The position numbers and the translations under genes are program-made. A stretch of 64,000 bases of DNA from Candidatus Nomurabacteria bacterium RIFCSPLOWO2_01_FULL_39_18 (lineage in GTDB: Bacteria > Patescibacteriota > Minisyncoccia > Phycocordibacterales > UBA9973), in the NCBI GenBank assembly GCA_001787005.1, contig MFUV01000004.1:911-64910 (forward strand). Direction: 5' to 3'. The notes below the pieces were generated by a model. The model did not search any database, was not told where the DNA came from, and saw only the letters and a program-made list of their open reading frames with translations. Shown piece after piece: positions 114 through 53,174 of the stretch. Each line of letters starts with the position of its first letter. Position 1 is the first letter of the stretch.

Positions 114-2729
114 TTAAGCATAATTTCTTTGAGAACTAGCTTGCCTGTTTCTGAAAAACCACTTTGCCCCTTCAATCAGAACAATGTTCAGCACACCAAT
201 CATGGCGACACCAATCACCCAGGGAAGTGGCAGAGCGACTGTATAAAAAATGGCTTGCAATCCAGGATAATAAATGGCCGCGGCCATCAGAACAAGGCCG
301 ATAACAATGCCTCCGTTAAGATATTTATTTGAAAAAAGTGAATAAGACAGAATGCTTTTATCTAAACTCCGCACCGAAAGGGCCACGAGCAGAGTGTACG
401 TGCCGAAAGCCGCAAAGATGAAAGTACGTACAGTGGCTTCATCGTGGCCGAGCCGTATCAGAACAAAATAAATAACAAAGAGCAGGATACTAGTGGATAG
501 ACCGATAGCCAGAATAAGGAATTTCATGACTGGGTCGAAAAGTTTTATCTTGCCTCTCTTTAGCGGTTTGTGCCTAAGACCGTCTCCATCTTTTTCGAAA
601 GCAAACGAGATAGCCGGAAAACTGTCGGTAAAGAAGTTGACCCAAAGAATTTGAAGCGGGTTTAGAGGCAGAGGCAAACCAGTCAAAAGCGATCCGCCGA
701 TTAGAATTAAGCCGTCAGTAACATTAGAAAGAAGATATACAAGCACTTTGCGAATGTTGCCGAGAATCTGTCGACCCTCTTCGATAGCCGCCACAATGGT
801 TTCGAAGTTGTCATCGAGAAGCACCAGGTCGGCAACGCTTTGCGCCACTTCTGTGCCAGAACCCATGGCGATGCCCACGTCGGCTTGCTTGATAGAGGGC
901 GCATCGTTCACCCCATCCCCAGTCATGGCCACCACCTCGCCTATTTCTTGGTAGAGCTTGGCGATACGAAGTTTGTCGAACGGCGTAACGCGGGAAATAA
1001 CAGTGAGTTTCGGCAATCGTTCTCGCAAGACCTCTTCCGAGAGCCCCGCAAGCTCGGACGCATCAAGCACTGAATGATTGTCGACCCTTATGCCAATTTC
1101 TCTGGCAACGGTCAGAGCCGTTCCTCGATGGTCACCGGTCAATATCACCGTCTTAATGCCAGCATCGCCGACTCTCTCTATGGCGTGCTTGATACCCGGC
1201 CTGATGGGATCGCGAAATGTAATGAGACCACCAAATGACAGATGCGAGAGTGATAAATTTTTTGAAAATGAAAAGTTTTCTGTGTGAATAATTTCTTTGG
1301 TCGCAACACCCAGCACACGTTCTCCGGAGAATGCGAGAGAATCAATCTGCTCTAACAATGCTTCCTTTTCTTTTACTCCGAGTGAAGAATGATTTAGTAG
1401 AATATCGGGTGCGCCGAAAAAGACAAGCAGGTGTTTGCTAGATTCTTTAATTAAAGACACAGAGAATTTCTGCACCGCGTTAAACGGCATAGTTTGGAGA
1501 ACATGTTTTTTGTTTGTTATCTCGGCAAAGGTCATCCCCCGAAGACCAGCCGATCGAACAAGCGACGTCTCCATTATTCTGCCATTCATGCGCCACAATT
1601 CTGGATCTTCGTGTGGATTTTCTATTAAAACATCTGCATTAGTTAGAGCCTGGAGAATAAGCTTCTGTTCGTCAATACCGAAAGGAATAACCTTGGACAT
1701 CACCATCTTCGCCATTGTTAAAGTTCCAGTTTTATCCGTAAGGATGACCGTGGTACTGCCGAGAGCTTCGGCGGCCACAAGCTTCCTGACAACGCCCTTA
1801 CGTTTAGCCATACGCTCCACCCCAACTGCTAAAATAACAGTTAAAGATACTGGCAACCCTTCTGGAATGGCTGACACAGCAATGGCGACGGAAGTGAGAA
1901 ACATGCTAAGGACTGAATAACCAGCGAGAACCCCAATTCCAAATACAACAAGAGTCAAAATACCAAGAGCGATACTCGAATAGATGCTGAAACTGATAAT
2001 GGCTTTTTGAAGAGGCGTTTTCTCGTTCTCGGAAGTTGCAATGAGTGAAGCAATCTTGCCAATTTCAGTGCTTGAATCGGTACGGCAGACGATGGCAGCG
2101 CACACTCCCTGAATGACTAGTGTGCCGGCAAATACCATAGAATCTTGATCTGAAATTCCGGCTGATTCTGGTGATGGATTGCTTGATTTGGCTACTGGTA
2201 AGGACTCCCCAGTCAGCACCGCTTCGTCAACCTGGAAGTCGTTCACAAATATCACCCTCGCATCGCCTGGCACTCGGTCGCCCTGGGCTAGACGGATGAT
2301 GTCGCCGGGCACTATCTCCTCCGCGTCAATCTCTCGCTCCTTCCCTTCCCTGATTACTCTTGCTCGTTGTTTGAGATATGTCTTCAATTCAGAAAGCGCG
2401 CGCTCGGCTTTGTTTTCCTGATAGAAGCCCAGAGTGGAATTAACTAACACAGCGAAAAAAATAAAAATAGTGTCCCGATAGTGAGAAATTAAAAGTGTTA
2501 TGATGCCGGTAACGATCAGAACGAGGATTAGGGGACTCTTCAATTGATTCAGGAATATTTTCAGCCTAACCGCCTTTCGCGATGAACTTATGGTGTTCCT
2601 GCCAAAAATTGACAAGCGGTCTTTGGCTTCTTCTCCGGACAAACCTTTTTCAAGGTCAGTCTCCAACAGACGCATCGCCTCGGACGATGATAGATGCCAA
2701 AAATTTTTGTTTTGTATTTCTATTAGCAA
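114..2729 (-). CDS. Cation-transporting P-type ATPase (Ca2+/Mg2+, type II-like)
   Basis: 871 aa with the DKTGTLT phosphorylation motif, the TGDGVNDAPS hinge motif and an N-terminal cation-ATPase-like region. Confidence 0.9.
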   Translation of the reverse strand: MLIEIQNKNFWHLSSSEAMRLLETDLEKGLSGEEAKDRLSIFGRNTISSSRKAVRLKIFLNQLKSPLILVLIVTGIITLLISHYRDTIFIFFAVLVNSTLGFYQENKAERALSELKTYLKQRARVIREGKEREIDAEEIVPGDIIRLAQGDRVPGDARVIFVNDFQVDEAVLTGESLPVAKSSNPSPESAGISDQDSMVFAGTLVIQGVCAAIVCRTDSSTEIGKIASLIATSENEKTPLQKAIISFSIYSSIALGILTLVVFGIGVLAGYSVLSMFLTSVAIAVSAIPEGLPVSLTVILAVGVERMAKRKGVVRKLVAAEALGSTTVILTDKTGTLTMAKMVMSKVIPFGIDEQKLILQALTNADVLIENPHEDPELWRMNGRIMETSLVRSAGLRGMTFAEITNKKHVLQTMPFNAVQKFSVSLIKESSKHLLVFFGAPDILLNHSSLGVKEKEALLEQIDSLAFSGERVLGVATKEIIHTENFSFSKNLSLSHLSFGGLITFRDPIRPGIKHAIERVGDAGIKTVILTGDHRGTALTVAREIGIRVDNHSVLDASELAGLSEEVLRERLPKLTVISRVTPFDKLRIAKLYQEIGEVVAMTGDGVNDAPSIKQADVGIAMGSGTEVAQSVADLVLLDDNFETIVAAIEEGRQILGNIRKVLVYLLSNVTDGLILIGGSLLTGLPLPLNPLQILWVNFFTDSFPAISFAFEKDGDGLRHKPLKRGKIKLFDPVMKFLILAIGLSTSILLFVIYFVLIRLGHDEATVRTFIFAAFGTYTLLVALSVRSLDKSILSYSLFSNKYLNGGIVIGLVLMAAAIYYPGLQAIFYTVALPLPWVIGVAMIGVLNIVLIEGAKWFFRNRQASSQRNYA

Positions 2730-2858
2730 ATTGTGGACCGTACAGGACTCTAGATTATTATATGATCAAGTATACCTTTTCAATTTGCTGAGAGTCAAGA
2801 TCCAAAAATTTGCATAATTAAGAAAATAAGCTAGAATGTTGCTATCTGGGCCGTTAGC

Positions 2859-3145
2859 CCCTCACCCAGAAATCATGCATTATATTTATGTATTAAAAAG
2901 TGTTATATTGGGTGAGTTATATATCGGACAAACAAATGATCTTAAACGGCGTTTTGCTGAACATAATGGCAAGAAAAACATTTCAACAAAACACAAAGCT
3001 CCGTTTAAGCTCGTTTATTACGAAGCTTATAAATCCCGGTCTGATGCTGTGTATCGTGAAAAGCAACTAAAGAAACATTCACAAGCTTATGTTGCCCTAA
3101 GAGAAAGAATAAAAAACAGCATTGCATGATTTCTGGGTAGAGGGG
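2859..3145. mobile_element. Small inverted-repeat-bounded element carrying a GIY-YIG nuclease gene, inserted at the 5' end of tRNA-Ala
   Basis: Near-identical 22-23 bp terminal inverted repeats: cccctcacccagaaatcatgca at 2859-2880 and tgcatgatttctgggtagagggg at 3123-3145. An 11-bp direct repeat GGGCCGTTAGC lies at 2848-2858 and 3143-3153. The second copy is the 5' end of the tRNA. Confidence 0.5.
2875..3129 (+). CDS. GIY-YIG nuclease family protein (UPF0213-like)
   Basis: Contains YIYVLKS...GELYIGQTNDLKRRFAEHN, a GIY-YIG motif. The start is taken at the internal M (MHYIYV), which overlaps the left inverted repeat. The TGA stop lies inside the right inverted repeat. Confidence 0.75.
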   Translation: MHYIYVLKSVILGELYIGQTNDLKRRFAEHNGKKNISTKHKAPFKLVYYEAYKSRSDAVYREKQLKKHSQAYVALRERIKNSIA

Positions 3146-3215
3146 CCGTTAGCTCATCTGGTAGAGCACCTCATTTGCAATGAGGGGGTGGCAGGTTCGA
3201 GTCCTGTACGGTCCA
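3143..3215 (+). tRNA. tRNA-Ala (anticodon UGC)
   Basis: Manual cloverleaf fold. Acceptor stem GGGCCGT/ACGGTCC with the G3:U70 pair, anticodon loop TTTGCAA, T-loop TTCGAGT. CCA is not encoded. Confidence 0.9.
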
Positions 3216-3251
3216 CAAAAAAATTAGCTTTTAAGCACATTTTTTGGTAGC

Positions 3252-3989
3252 ATGAACATTTTTGAAAAATTTACCAATAGAAAATCCAAAACAGTAGAAC
3301 AGGATCAAAAAATATTACCATCTGATATAAGATACGCTCTACAATACAAAAAGAGTCTACTAAACAGGATAGATATAGAAACTTTGGTCAGAAATAATTT
3401 CGAAAATGAGGCACTTTATCTGACATTTAAAAGTTTAACAGAAAATCCGGAACAACACAGAACTTTGCTTGAAAAATGTATTTCTTGTGTTTTAGAAAGT
3501 GGTAATGACACAAAAACTCAAAAAAACACTTTGCAAAAACTTATACTTGAAGCATTGGGAAATAGAAATGACATCCAAGTAAAGGGGGGTAAGTTGGCCC
3601 AACTATCTCGTCAGGGATTTGATCTTTGGCAAGATAAATTCAAACTCGTGGCTTCCCAATTAAGCGATGATGACAGAAATGTATTTTTGGTAACTAATCC
3701 CATGCTTATTGGTTTAAGTTCTTTTGTGCAGGCTTTTTCTGAAAAAAATAAAACATTAAATATAGTAGTGCCCGCATGGCTAGAAAAAGAAAATATGGGA
3801 TATGTTGTTACTTTTGCTGGTGGAAAAATGAATGTGGAATGGTTACGGAAACCTTTTGATAAAAGAGATTTGGTTATAATTGATGATACTAGAAACACAG
3901 GGGACACCCTAGAAAGAATACGGGATTATTTCGTGAAAAATGGTTCTCAAGAGCCAGAGATGTTGGACATGGACAAGATGATAACTTAA
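3252..3989 (+). CDS. Hypothetical protein with a C-terminal phosphoribosyltransferase-like motif
   Basis: 245 aa. The C-terminal segment VIIDDTRNTGDTLERI resembles the PRTase PRPP-binding loop. The N-terminal part was not recognised. Confidence 0.4.
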   Translation: MNIFEKFTNRKSKTVEQDQKILPSDIRYALQYKKSLLNRIDIETLVRNNFENEALYLTFKSLTENPEQHRTLLEKCISCVLESGNDTKTQKNTLQKLILEALGNRNDIQVKGGKLAQLSRQGFDLWQDKFKLVASQLSDDDRNVFLVTNPMLIGLSSFVQAFSEKNKTLNIVVPAWLEKENMGYVVTFAGGKMNVEWLRKPFDKRDLVIIDDTRNTGDTLERIRDYFVKNGSQEPEMLDMDKMIT

Positions 3990-4009: not shown

Positions 4010-4741
4010 ATGCCCCAAGAATTTAGATTCTCGAAAAATGTTACCACTCTAATCAACATCCCCCTGGGCGGGCTTTTTGCAATGATTCAGGCTTTGTTTT
4101 TTATAAACGGATTGCTGTGGCTAGCAGGCATAATTTTTGCCACAGATATTAATATAATATTCTGGCTGATTTGTTTTGTTGGTATATTCATCTGCGCTTT
4201 CTTTACATCGCTTTGCGGTCTCTTGGAGTTGAAATGGAGCGCCGTCATCATGGGCACGATAGCAGGGTTAGTGTTCGTCAAAGCAACTGGAGAATTCACG
4301 CAGTTTCAGTTATTTTTCTCTTTATTCACCACGACACTGGCAACATATATTTTTTCAATGTTCCCGGAGATAAAATTAAAAAAGCCTGATTTTATAAATA
4401 ATTTAAATATAATAATCGCAGGACACGTCTTCTGCGACATTATTGTCATGATTAGTTTATTCGCCTCAATCTGGGTGGGGTGGATAAGGCCTTTTGTTTT
4501 GATTGAGATTCTAATTATCATCCTTGCTTGGTATATATTAGGCGGATGCCCTTTCACGGTCGTGGAAGTAAAATTAAATGATAGTAGCGCAAAAAAGATC
4601 ATCCAACATGGATTCCTAGTTTATTACGGAAGATCATATTTGGGACTGAAGATAGATGAGCTCAAATTTGAAACAATGCTAGACCACGTTTTCTATGTTG
4701 GCACAGCTATAATTTTCCTCCTGTGGTTTGTCCTACCGTAA
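4010..4741 (+). CDS. Hypothetical integral membrane protein
   Basis: 243 aa with multiple hydrophobic helices and no recognised motif. Confidence 0.4.
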   Translation: MPQEFRFSKNVTTLINIPLGGLFAMIQALFFINGLLWLAGIIFATDINIIFWLICFVGIFICAFFTSLCGLLELKWSAVIMGTIAGLVFVKATGEFTQFQLFFSLFTTTLATYIFSMFPEIKLKKPDFINNLNIIIAGHVFCDIIVMISLFASIWVGWIRPFVLIEILIIILAWYILGGCPFTVVEVKLNDSSAKKIIQHGFLVYYGRSYLGLKIDELKFETMLDHVFYVGTAIIFLLWFVLP

Positions 4742-4756
4742 AAATTCAAAGAATTC

Positions 4757-6196
4757 CTAGAATTTATTCCAGAGCACCTGATTGGTTACCTCGTGGTGAT
4801 AGACAATCTCGGAGGATTTGATGAGCGCCCCGAGAGCCTTGGGGCTGCGGTCAGCCGCCATCTGTTTAAATTCTGTAAATTTTTCTTGGTTAGTCCGGTT
4901 TAGAATTTTACCGACGAAATCGCTGGCCTTGAAGAGTTTGATCGCGTCATTGATGTTGTCTGGCAAGACCCGCACCCTGTCCCGCTTTTCTTTATCTTTA
5001 ACGAGAAGCTGGCCCTCCAGCCCAGTTTTTAAGATTGTAAAAAGCGCCATGTAAGGATTCGCATCCGGAGCAACAGAGCGGACTTCGATGCGGGTGGAGC
5101 GTTCATTGCCCACAGGAATACGTATCATCGAACCGCGGTCAATTGGAGAGACTTTGATCTGGTTGGGCGCTTCGAAGTGCGGGTCGAGCCGGCGATAAGC
5201 GTTCACGCTCGAATTCAAAACCAAGCAGATTTCCGAGGCATGATTTAAAATTCTCGAAATAAAATCCCAAGCAATCTCTGACAAGCCTTCCTTGCCCTTT
5301 GTATTATAAAATATATTTTTCCCGCCTTTAGAGAGTGAAATGTTCGTATGCATGCCAGAACCGTTGATGCCGATGAAGGGCTTCGGCAAGAAAGTCGCCG
5401 TAATGCCCAGATTGTTGGCGACTTGACGGCAGACCAGTTTGTAGAGCTGGATATTATCCGCGGCCCGTAGAATGTCTGTATAAGAAAAGTTCATTTCAAA
5501 CTGCGAAGGCGCCACTTCCGGATGGTCCTTTTCATTCTTGAAACCCATCGCCCTTTGCGCTTCGGCGGCGCGATCGATAAATTGGCGGAGTCGATCAAGC
5601 GGCAATGAATGATAGTACCCGCCAGTTGAAATAAATTGAAAGGAGCCTGTTTCTTCATACCTCTGTTCAGCGTTAATTCCATCAACCAGAAACCCCTCCA
5701 CTTCTGCCGAGACATATGCCGTTATTCCGCTTTTCTTCTTGAGCGCTTCTCCATAGAGCTTGAGCTGACTGCGAAAATCAGAAACGTACGGGGTGTGGTC
5801 TCTATTTAAGACATCCACAAACATAATAACTTTGCCAGGACCAAAAACATCCGACGGGAGATACCTGATGCTCCCCCAATTAATAGCGAGGCGGAGGTCA
5901 GACTCATGTTGCTGGCTAAAACCACGAATAGATGAGCCGTCAAAGGTCAGGTTATTGGCCGAATCTAGGAGAAACTTTTTATCATAATCAAGCATATGGA
6001 ATCTGCCCTCTAAATCCGTAAAACAGAGCGTCACTGCTTTAATCCTTTTTTCTTTTTGCAAATATGCGCGATATTCCCTCTCGAGCAAAGCTTCACTCAC
6101 CTTCTCTCTCCGGTCTTTAGCTCGGAGATTCATCGCCTCAAGGTCATCGTAGGAGATCTCTAAAAAATTCTTCAATTCTTTCTTTATTCCATTCAT
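4757..6196 (-). CDS. glnA: Glutamine synthetase
   Basis: 479 aa carrying the glutamine-synthetase ATP-binding signature KPFIGINGSGMHTNISL. Confidence 0.9.
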   Translation of the reverse strand: MNGIKKELKNFLEISYDDLEAMNLRAKDRREKVSEALLEREYRAYLQKEKRIKAVTLCFTDLEGRFHMLDYDKKFLLDSANNLTFDGSSIRGFSQQHESDLRLAINWGSIRYLPSDVFGPGKVIMFVDVLNRDHTPYVSDFRSQLKLYGEALKKKSGITAYVSAEVEGFLVDGINAEQRYEETGSFQFISTGGYYHSLPLDRLRQFIDRAAEAQRAMGFKNEKDHPEVAPSQFEMNFSYTDILRAADNIQLYKLVCRQVANNLGITATFLPKPFIGINGSGMHTNISLSKGGKNIFYNTKGKEGLSEIAWDFISRILNHASEICLVLNSSVNAYRRLDPHFEAPNQIKVSPIDRGSMIRIPVGNERSTRIEVRSVAPDANPYMALFTILKTGLEGQLLVKDKEKRDRVRVLPDNINDAIKLFKASDFVGKILNRTNQEKFTEFKQMAADRSPKALGALIKSSEIVYHHEVTNQVLWNKF

Positions 6197-22061: not shown

Positions 22062-22104
22062 ATATGCTAGTGTAGTAAGTGGATGATTTTTGGGGGAAAA
22101 TACT

Positions 22105-53105: not shown

Positions 53106-53172
53106 ACCTCACCCCCGTCCCCTCTCCTTGTCAAGGAGAGGGGTGCCCAGAGACTTTCTGGGCGGGGTGAGG
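53106..53172. repeat. GC-rich palindromic element, copy C, intergenic and possibly the rpmF terminator
   Basis: Nested hairpins cctcaccccc...gggggtgagg and cccctctcc-ttgtcaa-ggagagggg, followed by a T-tract. Confidence 0.5.
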
Positions 53173-53174
53173 TT

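Follow-up and report, generated by a model that had tools for sequence, protein, structure and literature searches.

How does a nuclease gene come to lie, within a hairpin of its own, exactly at the 5' end of an otherwise intact transfer RNA (tRNA) gene? The question is raised by a locus in a stretch of 64,000 nucleotides (nt) of Candidatus Nomurabacteria bacterium RIFCSPLOWO2_01_FULL_39_18 (contig MFUV01000004.1, positions 911 to 64,910; hereafter the window), where a small open reading frame (ORF) of the GIY-YIG nuclease family precedes the gene for tRNA-Ala(UGC). We consider it probable that the locus holds a selfish, horizontally moving mini-element, that is a GIY-YIG gene of 84 amino acids (aa) set in its own hairpin loop and wedged into the 5' end of tRNA-Ala, which is expressed and spreads in the way proposed below. 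The element sits between the promoter of tRNA-Ala and the tRNA, with the original nt 1-10 left on the promoter side and an intact 5' end after the right arm. Other tRNAs starting with GGG carry relatives at this position, and in those found at tRNA-Lys the element is, by sequence divergence, younger than its flanks.

All features of the locus lie on the + strand. A sigma-70-like promoter detected by consensus scan (TTGCAT-17 nt-TAGAAT, 2809-2838) ends 9 nt 5' of a left copy of tRNA-Ala nt 1-10 (GGGCCGTTAG, 2848-2857), which is either the orphaned original 5' end or a target duplication. The left arm of an inverted repeat (2857-2880) follows, holding the outer motif CCCCTCAC (2858-2865) and the start codon of the single-domain nuclease gene (2875-3129), while the stop codon falls within the right arm (3123-3146), whose G-rich end, GAGGGGC, extends into nt 1-4 of the intact tRNA-Ala(UGC), the host gene of the insertion (3143-3216; ARAGORN; Rfam tRNA, 63.6 bits, E=3e-13). 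The perfect core of the arms measures 16 nt (ACCCAGAAATCATGCA, 2864-2879 against 3123-3138), and pairing continues past a 1-nt bulge at A3139 with GCCCCTC (2857-2863) against GAGGGGC (3140-3146), for a total of 23 pairs. The bulge is the extra A of the right-arm motif in the window, GTAGAGGGG, for which the relatives at tRNA genes have GTGAGGGG. Apart from the ORF, no more than 40 nt (all non-coding) separate the two tRNA copies, and the 11-mer GGGCCGTTAGC occurs at 2848-2858 and 3143-3153, the latter being nt 1-11 of tRNA-Ala(UGC), and nowhere else in the window.

The first-pass annotation of this DNA had described much of this layout. The GIY-YIG ORF is confirmed, with 84 instead of 85 residues, as are the inverted repeats that bound it (given then as 22-23 bp), which hold both the ATG (2875-2877) and the TGA (3127-3129), and the 11-mer whose second copy opens tRNA-Ala. 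The 11-mers had been placed strictly outside the inverted repeats, whereas direct and inverted repeats in fact overlap, the stem taking in 2 nt at the end of the left copy and 4 nt at the start of the tRNA. Nor does the promoter lie inside the element, as had been put forward for checking: the consensus scan found no + strand promoter-like site between 2838 and tRNA-Ala, so that the tRNA would be transcribed through the nuclease ORF, and the site at 2809-2838, kept in the closest relative (L111) and in L024, is the sole promoter-like one positioned to drive both genes.

Relatives of the element, cited here by locus number (L), were collected from a scan of one genome per species, which gave at least 592, by title largely from the Candidate Phyla Radiation (CPR)/Patescibacteria; 80 loci were kept, and both flanks of every ORF were extracted and searched for complementary arms. 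The nearest relatives form one clade in the nuclease tree and are positioned 2-60 nt 5' of tRNA-Ala (UGC, GGC, CGC), tRNA-Val (GAC, CAC), tRNA-Lys(UUU) or tRNA-Pro(CGG). Their left arm is preceded by nt 1-10 of their own tRNA, namely GGGCC[G/C/A]NTAG at Ala, GGGCGGTTAG and GGGGTGATTAG at Val, GGGCCGGTAG at Lys and CGGGCCGTGG at Pro loci. Among the tRNAs whose upstream region was long enough, 22 of 47 showed a copy of their own nt 1-9 there, whereas the controls, one 9-mer from nt 21-29 and one that reverse-complements nt 1-9, each gave 0 of 47, and chance is therefore excluded. The target tRNAs start with GGG in 21 cases and with CGGG in one.

How long the duplicated segment is can be judged from the tRNAs that have a T at nt 11 (L021, L025, L027, L030, L061), for which the left copy shows a C at that place, the exception being L040, whose copy carries T11. 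The duplicated part is thus most likely nt 1-10, and the eleventh base of the left copy, as this comparison suggests, is most likely the first C of the arm motif CCCCTCAC. Since the right end of the element, GTGAGGGG, shares GGG with tRNA nt 1-3, two descriptions serve equally well: a duplication of 10 bp with asymmetric element ends, or one of 7 bp (nt 4-10) together with a perfect terminal repeat, the GGG of which rebuilds the tRNA 5' end. The target duplication of 11 bp proposed at first pass stands as a duplication that leaves the tRNA intact, its length being corrected to 10 (or 7) bp. In L040 two elements lie in tandem before one tRNA-Ala, and in L026 the order is nuclease, tRNA-Val, nuclease, tRNA-Ala, nuclease; L018, L020, L022 and L024 show a left copy and an ORF-less hairpin 5' of the tRNA, and in L019 left arm and left copy are both lost. 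In the nuclease tree, which comes from a short alignment and has weak resolution, elements at Ala, Val and Lys tRNAs are intermingled. One copy is present in the 64-kb window and two to three within 6 kb in L026, L040 and L053, and L064 and L085 are two contigs of one genome that both bear copies.

Does the element move? Similarity between the window and relatives at unrelated loci (L008, L018, L109) starts at 2847/2848, with base 1 of the left copy, and stops at the tRNA 3' end, the promoter being common also to the two closest relatives. In five Magasanikbacteria genomes (L051, L055, L057, L063 and L129), the tRNA-Lys element has a translin gene on one side and a radical-SAM gene on the other, and a sixth, L130, with the same synteny and a translin gene 78% identical, has no element and hence offers an orthologous empty site; the more distant genomes of L131 and L132 are likewise empty. 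The empty flank of L130 reads ...CAATTTAAT / GGGCCGGTAG / CTCAG, with one copy of GGGCCGGTAG, while the filled sites read ...AAAATAT / GGGCCGGTAG / CCCCTCACC...ORF...GGTGAG / GGGCCGGTAG / CTCAG, with two copies flanking the element. Between the filled genomes the ORF shows 94-99% nucleotide identity against 55-86% for the flanks. When the same genomes are paired, the proportion of synonymous differences (pS) ranges over 0.04-0.25 in the ORF and over 0.19-0.66 in the translin gene beside it, the divergence of the ORF being 2.6-9 times lower. The element accordingly entered, or was replaced in, these lineages after they diverged, and low synonymous divergence and empty site together indicate a real, horizontally moving insertion. 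The neighbouring gene, for a translin-family (PF01997) RNA/single-stranded DNA (ssDNA)-binding protein (L055 2249-2824 and relatives), is divergent from tRNA-Lys, and its place next to the insertion site is probably coincidental.

The earlier proposal of a small mobile element at the 5' end of tRNA-Ala is in this way supported by the same layout at Ala, Val, Lys and Pro tRNAs, by the empty site of L130 and by tandem or multi-copy loci (L040, L026, L053). Besides the promoter, it had named two further ways of checking it. The search for empty sites was successful for the tRNA-Lys relatives and found none for the window locus, and the inverted repeats recur, through their outer motif, in all relatives at tRNA genes and nowhere else in the window.

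Beyond the tRNA genes the family is large. A profile search returned 22,694 clusters (50% identity) with the cutoff set to E<=1e-3, and 5,064 when it was tightened to E<=1e-10; the closest named proteins belong to Parcubacteria-group CPR bacteria, e.g., Nomurabacteria and Zambryskibacteria. Inverted repeats of 13-26 bp bracket about 65 of about 85 ORFs, abutting or overlapping the start and stop codons. Conservation is seen at their outer ends, where the 5' arm is rich in C and the 3' arm rich in G (motif CCCC-N-CAC / GTG-N-GGGG), with the variants CCCCTCAC/GTGAGGGG, CCCCCACAC/GTGTGGGGG, CCCCGCCC/GGGCGGGG and CCCGCACAC/GTGTGCGGG, whereas the inner parts differ wholly between loci and yet remain complementary (30 mismatches in 1,328 pairs, about 2%). 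The arm type tracks the nuclease clade, and ORF-less hairpins with the same arms were found as well.

According to Rfam, homologous ORFs also reside inside 23S ribosomal RNA (rRNA) genes (L037, L039, L047, L049, L074, L075), inside a 16S rRNA gene (L091), inside or directly 5' of RNase P RNA genes (L068, L070, L077) and 17 nt before a transfer-messenger RNA (tmRNA) gene (L079, 962-1572). One arm family, CCCCGCCCTTTTG, is common to 16S, 23S and RNase-P-like contexts, from which it follows that the arms belong to the element and not to host helices. At the tmRNA locus the G-rich right arm (GTGTGGGGG) is found just 5' of the Rfam-called tmRNA start. In the RNase P RNA cases (L068, 2898-3550; L070 and L077, from 3253; right flanks of L041, L050 and L097) the right arm of the ORF continues into a conserved GGAGGAAAGTCCG segment; no mention of GIY-YIG ORFs in or before CPR RNase P RNA genes was found in the literature searched. 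The 23S rRNA gene of L039, besides its GIY-YIG hairpin insert, also has two group I introns (4677-4932 and 5520-5811).

The nuclease is the element's only ORF, with no recognised transposase (DDE, HUH, serine or tyrosine recombinase) in it. Its product matches PF01541 over residues 1-71 (E=1e-18) and consists, in all its 84 aa, of the GIY-YIG catalytic domain alone, with no DNA-binding domain; Y3, Y5, Y16, G18, R26, H30 and E62 are invariant among 33 homologues. Values of dN/dS against relatives of 0.07-0.18 argue for purifying selection on the protein. The published gene call of 97 aa, whose ATG at 2836 falls inside the -10 box and which reads through the repeat, was rejected, as homologues start M-H/F/Y-Y instead; gene callers run these ORFs through the repeat (97 vs. 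84 aa here), and annotation of CPR tRNA and rRNA genes should expect such inserts. By sequence, the nearest solved structures are those of the UPF0213 protein BH0048 (E=7e-12) and of EF2693, then of SLX1 (PDB 1zg2, 1ywl). With the family profile, gonococcal SsnA reaches 47.4 bits and BH0048 reaches 48.5 bits, so that the protein appears equidistant from SsnA and UPF0213, and the first-pass label "UPF0213-type" was half right. In the gonococcal chromosome the tblastn match is ssnA, a 94-aa ORF amid seven exact NTS repeats, and the published SRM pattern, applied as a regular expression, gives 7 sites around gonococcal ssnA against 0 in 2501-3500 of the window. A TIGR01453 match spans positions 3-75 of 215 only and is below cutoff, and weak profile matches connect the protein to group I intron and phage homing endonucleases. 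Carriage by phages was dropped, given that the search of IMG/VR returned only weak relatives.

In the mechanism that we propose, the tRNA promoter would transcribe left copy, nuclease mRNA and tRNA as a single RNA, and a cut by RNase P at G3143 would release the tRNA, so that insertion into a probably essential gene would be tolerated. The 23-bp stem around AUG and UGA would keep the insert folded apart from the tRNA and would probably limit translation. By analogy with SsnA, the nuclease may recognise its cognate arms as a hairpin in ssDNA and nick near targets starting with GGG, whereupon host repair or synthesis, or template switching, could copy the element into the new site. The microhomology used may be that of the conserved tRNA TAG (nt 8-10) and of the GGG run of the element's right end and the target's 5' end, which would account for the 7-10-bp duplication and for the restriction to RNA genes starting with GGG.

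Several points weigh against a selfish, mobile element of this kind. The joining chemistry is the weakest step: GIY-YIG enzymes hydrolyse DNA, we know of none that joins strands, and insertion would need host functions. The window copy is separated from its nearest relatives by a synonymous divergence (dS) of 0.34-0.75 and hence is not a recent arrival, and the window has neither a second copy of the element nor further matches to its 16-nt arm core or to the 11-mer. A weak arm match with three mismatches just 5' of tRNA-Thr (22080-22095), having neither ORF nor hairpin, was put down to chance. Inspection of the flanks of the relatives outside tRNA genes revealed no consistent flanking duplication, and a minority of relatives (L019, L022, L024) are without left arm and duplication. 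In L008 an unoccupied second tRNA-Ala with the same first 11 nt stands beside the filled one, which means that invasion is not efficient and that targets are not saturated. The evidence of filled and empty sites comes from relatives 57% identical in protein, and no orthologous empty site was found for the window locus itself, where a metagenome scan with the downstream 245-aa gene gave one 52% relative in a different context and a protein database search with the same gene gave nothing between 100% and 52% identity. Contigs with the identical neighbour gene all carry the element or break inside the tRNA, and the breaks of Logan contigs at 3192 are best explained by tRNA sequence common to several organisms, and not by inversion. 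That the window copy is itself mobile is what we infer from its family.

A bolder claim is that the GIY-YIG nuclease, as the sole protein of an element of about 290 bp, drives a new kind of prokaryotic transposition, with insertion into the 5' ends of GGG-starting tRNA, tmRNA, RNase P RNA and rRNA genes, a 7-10-bp duplication, and a G-rich terminus that rebuilds the 5' end of the host RNA. We put it forward tentatively and would sooner expect it to fail than to hold. The "miniature IS" (insertion sequence) of the first-pass annotation overstates the case in the same direction, a GIY-YIG protein being a hydrolytic nuclease and no known transposase, and the relatives outside tRNA genes being without consistent duplication. 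The known bacterial IS families rely on DDE, HUH, serine, tyrosine or Cas1-type enzymes. If the claim were true, no smaller autonomous DNA transposon would be known, no GIY-YIG "transposase" would precede this one, and Ssn nucleases would have a selfish origin; were the nuclease the sole mobility factor, the GIY-YIG family would be added to those of IS elements, and about 290 bp would be near the minimum for an autonomous element.

Among the other explanations, a free-standing homing endonuclease gene would spread by a double-strand break in the empty tRNA allele, into which recombination copies the gene; it would move between homologous sites only, would not be a transposon, and the repeats would be incidental. 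Filled and empty alleles at one orthologous site, as seen in the tRNA-Lys relatives only, and an element younger than its flanks are what such a gene would leave, the weak profile matches to homing endonucleases point the same way, and T4 SegB, a GIY-YIG homing endonuclease in a tRNA gene cluster, provides a precedent (PMC2330249). However, the 84-aa protein is without a DNA-binding domain, and a route based on homology gives no target duplication and leaves ragged co-conversion tracts, whereas the boundary of the left copy is sharp in every comparison. The homology on the left would moreover span 10 nt only, and hosts switch among non-homologous tRNAs and 16S, 23S and RNase P RNA genes with the arms unchanged. 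We consequently judge homing improbable.

A resident gene that has ceased to move is a further candidate: a domesticated Ssn/UPF0213-like nuclease co-transcribed by chance with tRNA-Ala, with the repeats as relics or serving a host role in the control of recombination or DNA uptake near tRNA genes. The single copy in the window, the dS to the nearest relatives and the strong purifying selection agree with it, and Neisseria SsnA has a host-level role in transformation (PMC11893778). It nevertheless fails to account for a synonymous divergence far below that of the neighbouring gene, for tandem insertions and an empty site, or for target-specific duplications at tRNAs of four kinds. These contrary data come from relatives, and the window copy could be an inactive descendant; even so, we regard this reading as very unlikely.

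Similarly unlikely, in our estimate, is a module acting at the RNA level, in which left copy and long stem are kept for a role in the transcript and are no scar of transposition. The left copy would then serve as the 5' acceptor strand of a tRNA-Ala-like fold carrying the nuclease mRNA as an extra arm of 290 nt between nt 9 and 10, in a tmRNA-like manner, and the arrangement could serve to stabilise the mRNA, to regulate it, or to link its translation with the maturation of the tRNA. The predicted fold of 2845-3219 (-120 kcal/mol, z=-5.9) forms the 23-bp stem and the D, anticodon and T arms, and at minimum free energy the left copy pairs with the 3' acceptor strand of the tRNA, nt 1-4 of the true tRNA being locked in the stem. 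Of 16 relatives, 15 favour this fold as well, with an advantage of 9-18 kcal/mol over structures that leave the left copy unpaired. Two substitutions in the acceptor region of the left copy keep pairing (G3A opposite U70 in L023, C4U opposite G69 in L027), the left copy of L053 retains nt 1-7 with the TAG lost, and stem mismatches, compared as a test of RNA-level against DNA-level constraint, lean to the G-U-compatible type (14 G-T vs. 8 A-C). The fold preference, however, follows automatically once the duplicate is present and so is no independent evidence, two to three informative substitutions and a 14:8 split are not significant, and with a complete tRNA downstream no such fold is needed. 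An empty site and a young element account for an intact left copy without selection, and in some relatives (L019) the left copy has been lost. Under the bolder claim above, too, the transcript might fold as a tRNA-like RNA that carries an mRNA, as tmRNA does. The predicted fold implies that, with the tRNA 5' end held in the stem, maturation at 3143 would need the stem to open, e.g., by a ribosome terminating at the UGA of the right arm.

Two last routes were considered: Campbell-type integration through a carried tRNA core seems less likely, since both copies agree with the new target once the element has changed to another tRNA species, and splicing, which was dropped and by which removal of 2858-3152 would also yield a mature tRNA, finds neither ribozyme nor bulge-helix-bulge motif and faces a complete tRNA downstream, Rfam at E<=1 on 2400-3600 giving the tRNA only and no group I/II intron or other known RNA.

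The surroundings of tRNA-Ala show further peculiarities. In the window a perfect 20-nt inverted copy of the tRNA-Ala 3' end, from T-loop to discriminator plus CA (2731-2750 vs. 3199-3218), is located 100 nt upstream of the element, so that promoter, nuclease gene and tRNA nt 1-56 are bracketed by 20-bp inverted repeats. Among the loci examined this copy was seen in the window genome only, and it may represent either a scar or a place at the tRNA where a recombinase inverts or integrates DNA. The tRNA-Ala 3' end is a strain-variable junction (L006, 800-879; L113, L115 and L116, just 3' of the tRNA; L008-L017, 3331-5283), where contigs with identical element and tRNA diverge right after CCA. In a GW2011 Nomurabacteria relative the tRNA-Ala adjoins a large serine recombinase gene, beyond which follow a second tRNA-Ala, inverted, element-free and 96% identical to the window tRNA, and about 110 nt of repeated downstream sequence. 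A Zambryskibacteria genome (L109 / L110, 965-1155) displays the element, tRNA-Ala nt 1-19, about 95 nt of a decayed-looking tRNA with a disrupted anticodon stem-loop, and then an intact tRNA-Ala, i.e., three copies of the tRNA 5' end in 460 nt. A second and more distant GIY-YIG ORF of 79 aa (L115, 1346-1585) sits in strain-specific sequence about 250 nt 3' of a tRNA-Ala that already bears an upstream element. Elsewhere in the window, an intergenic three-way-junction structure at 53106-53173 (-52 kcal/mol; z=-6.7 to -7.4 on either strand; T-run after it on the + strand) consists of the stems CCUCACCCC/GGGGUGAGG, CCCCUCUCC.../...GGAGAGGGG and GCCCAGA/UCUGGGC, and includes a hairpin (53119-53143) with CCCCTC/GAGGGG arms loosely similar to those of the element; it might act as a terminator or as a small RNA, or else be related to the hairpin family as a form that lacks the ORF.

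The family offers a reason for the many CPR insertions in rRNA, RNase P RNA and tRNA genes, in that an own stem and a G-rich end let the host RNA mature; it suggests a mobile ancestry for the recently discovered, biotechnologically interesting Ssn nucleases of ssDNA; and it makes available thousands of natural nuclease/hairpin pairs with inferable specificity.

Comparison with known systems defines what is new here. GIY-YIG ORFs in CPR rRNA insertions are already published, and so is the association of Ssn nucleases with hairpins (PMC11893778). The former are proteins encoded by inserts that interrupt CPR rRNA genes and are not introns (Tsurumaki et al., 2024, PMC11270868), the first report of which is credited there to an earlier study (its ref. 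2). They share with the window locus the protein family and the host phylum, homologues of the window ORF being present in 23S and 16S genes, as well as the insert on a stem and the lack of a group I/II intron; in contrast, the window copy is not in rRNA and lies at a tRNA 5' end or leader with a duplicated tRNA segment, and PMC11270868 describes no conserved arms, no sites in tRNA, RNase P RNA or tmRNA genes, no duplication and no empty sites. In the literature searched we found no description of the tRNA-5' form and its target duplication, of an arm motif shared across tRNA, tmRNA, RNase P RNA and rRNA inserts, or of filled and empty sites and the age contrast with flanking genes.

When set beside IS elements and transposons with terminal inverted repeats, the family has such repeats (the 23-bp arms) and a target duplication created anew at Ala, Val, Lys and Pro genes. 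UPF0213/SLX1-type proteins are its best relatives by sequence among solved structures (E=7e-12) and have in common a stand-alone catalytic domain; SLX1 needs partner domains, and no function, repeat association or mobility is described for UPF0213. Enzymes of the SegB type, and likewise I-TevI, are larger and consist of several domains, including one region that binds DNA. Their genes spread through homologous repair, which involves neither inverted repeats nor a duplicated target, and in this they differ from the window element. T4 SegB resembles it as a selfish GIY-YIG gene beside tRNA genes that spreads into empty alleles (PMC2330249); characterised GIY-YIG enzymes generally carry an added DNA-binding domain (PMC11893778). 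The intervening sequences excised from 23S rRNA by RNase III are also long-stem inserts within or next to a structured RNA gene whose RNA still matures, and some carry an ORF, but of a different family, and no nuclease, terminal motif or duplication is known for them. With REP/RAYT and IS200/IS605 elements the window element shares a small nuclease gene flanked by cognate palindromes, scattered ORF-less hairpin copies and, by analogy, recognition of a single-strand hairpin as its likely mode; theirs are HUH tyrosine transposases with covalent intermediates and no duplication, whereas the window encodes a GIY-YIG protein.

The closest parallel is with the Ssn nucleases (CDD cd10448). SsnA is a single-domain GIY-YIG enzyme that binds a hairpin repeat in ssDNA and cuts upstream of it (Chenal et al., 2025, PMC11893778); it ignores double-stranded DNA and RNA, still cuts when the hairpin halves are on separate strands, and copies of its repeat usually lie on both sides of the gene, a layout called "IS-like" (PMC11893778). 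The window gene lies inside one hairpin and not between two short ones, its arms are off the SRM pattern, and it has a target duplication and resides in structured-RNA genes, while no mobility is known for Ssn. On the other side stand a single-domain GIY-YIG protein of about 90 aa with significant sequence similarity at 47.4 bits, hairpin-forming repeats that bracket the gene, and nuclease and repeat that co-vary; the cutting of split hairpin halves by SsnA fits a window hairpin split by its ORF. Overall, Ssn provides a strong working analogy for how the window nuclease may recognise its arms.

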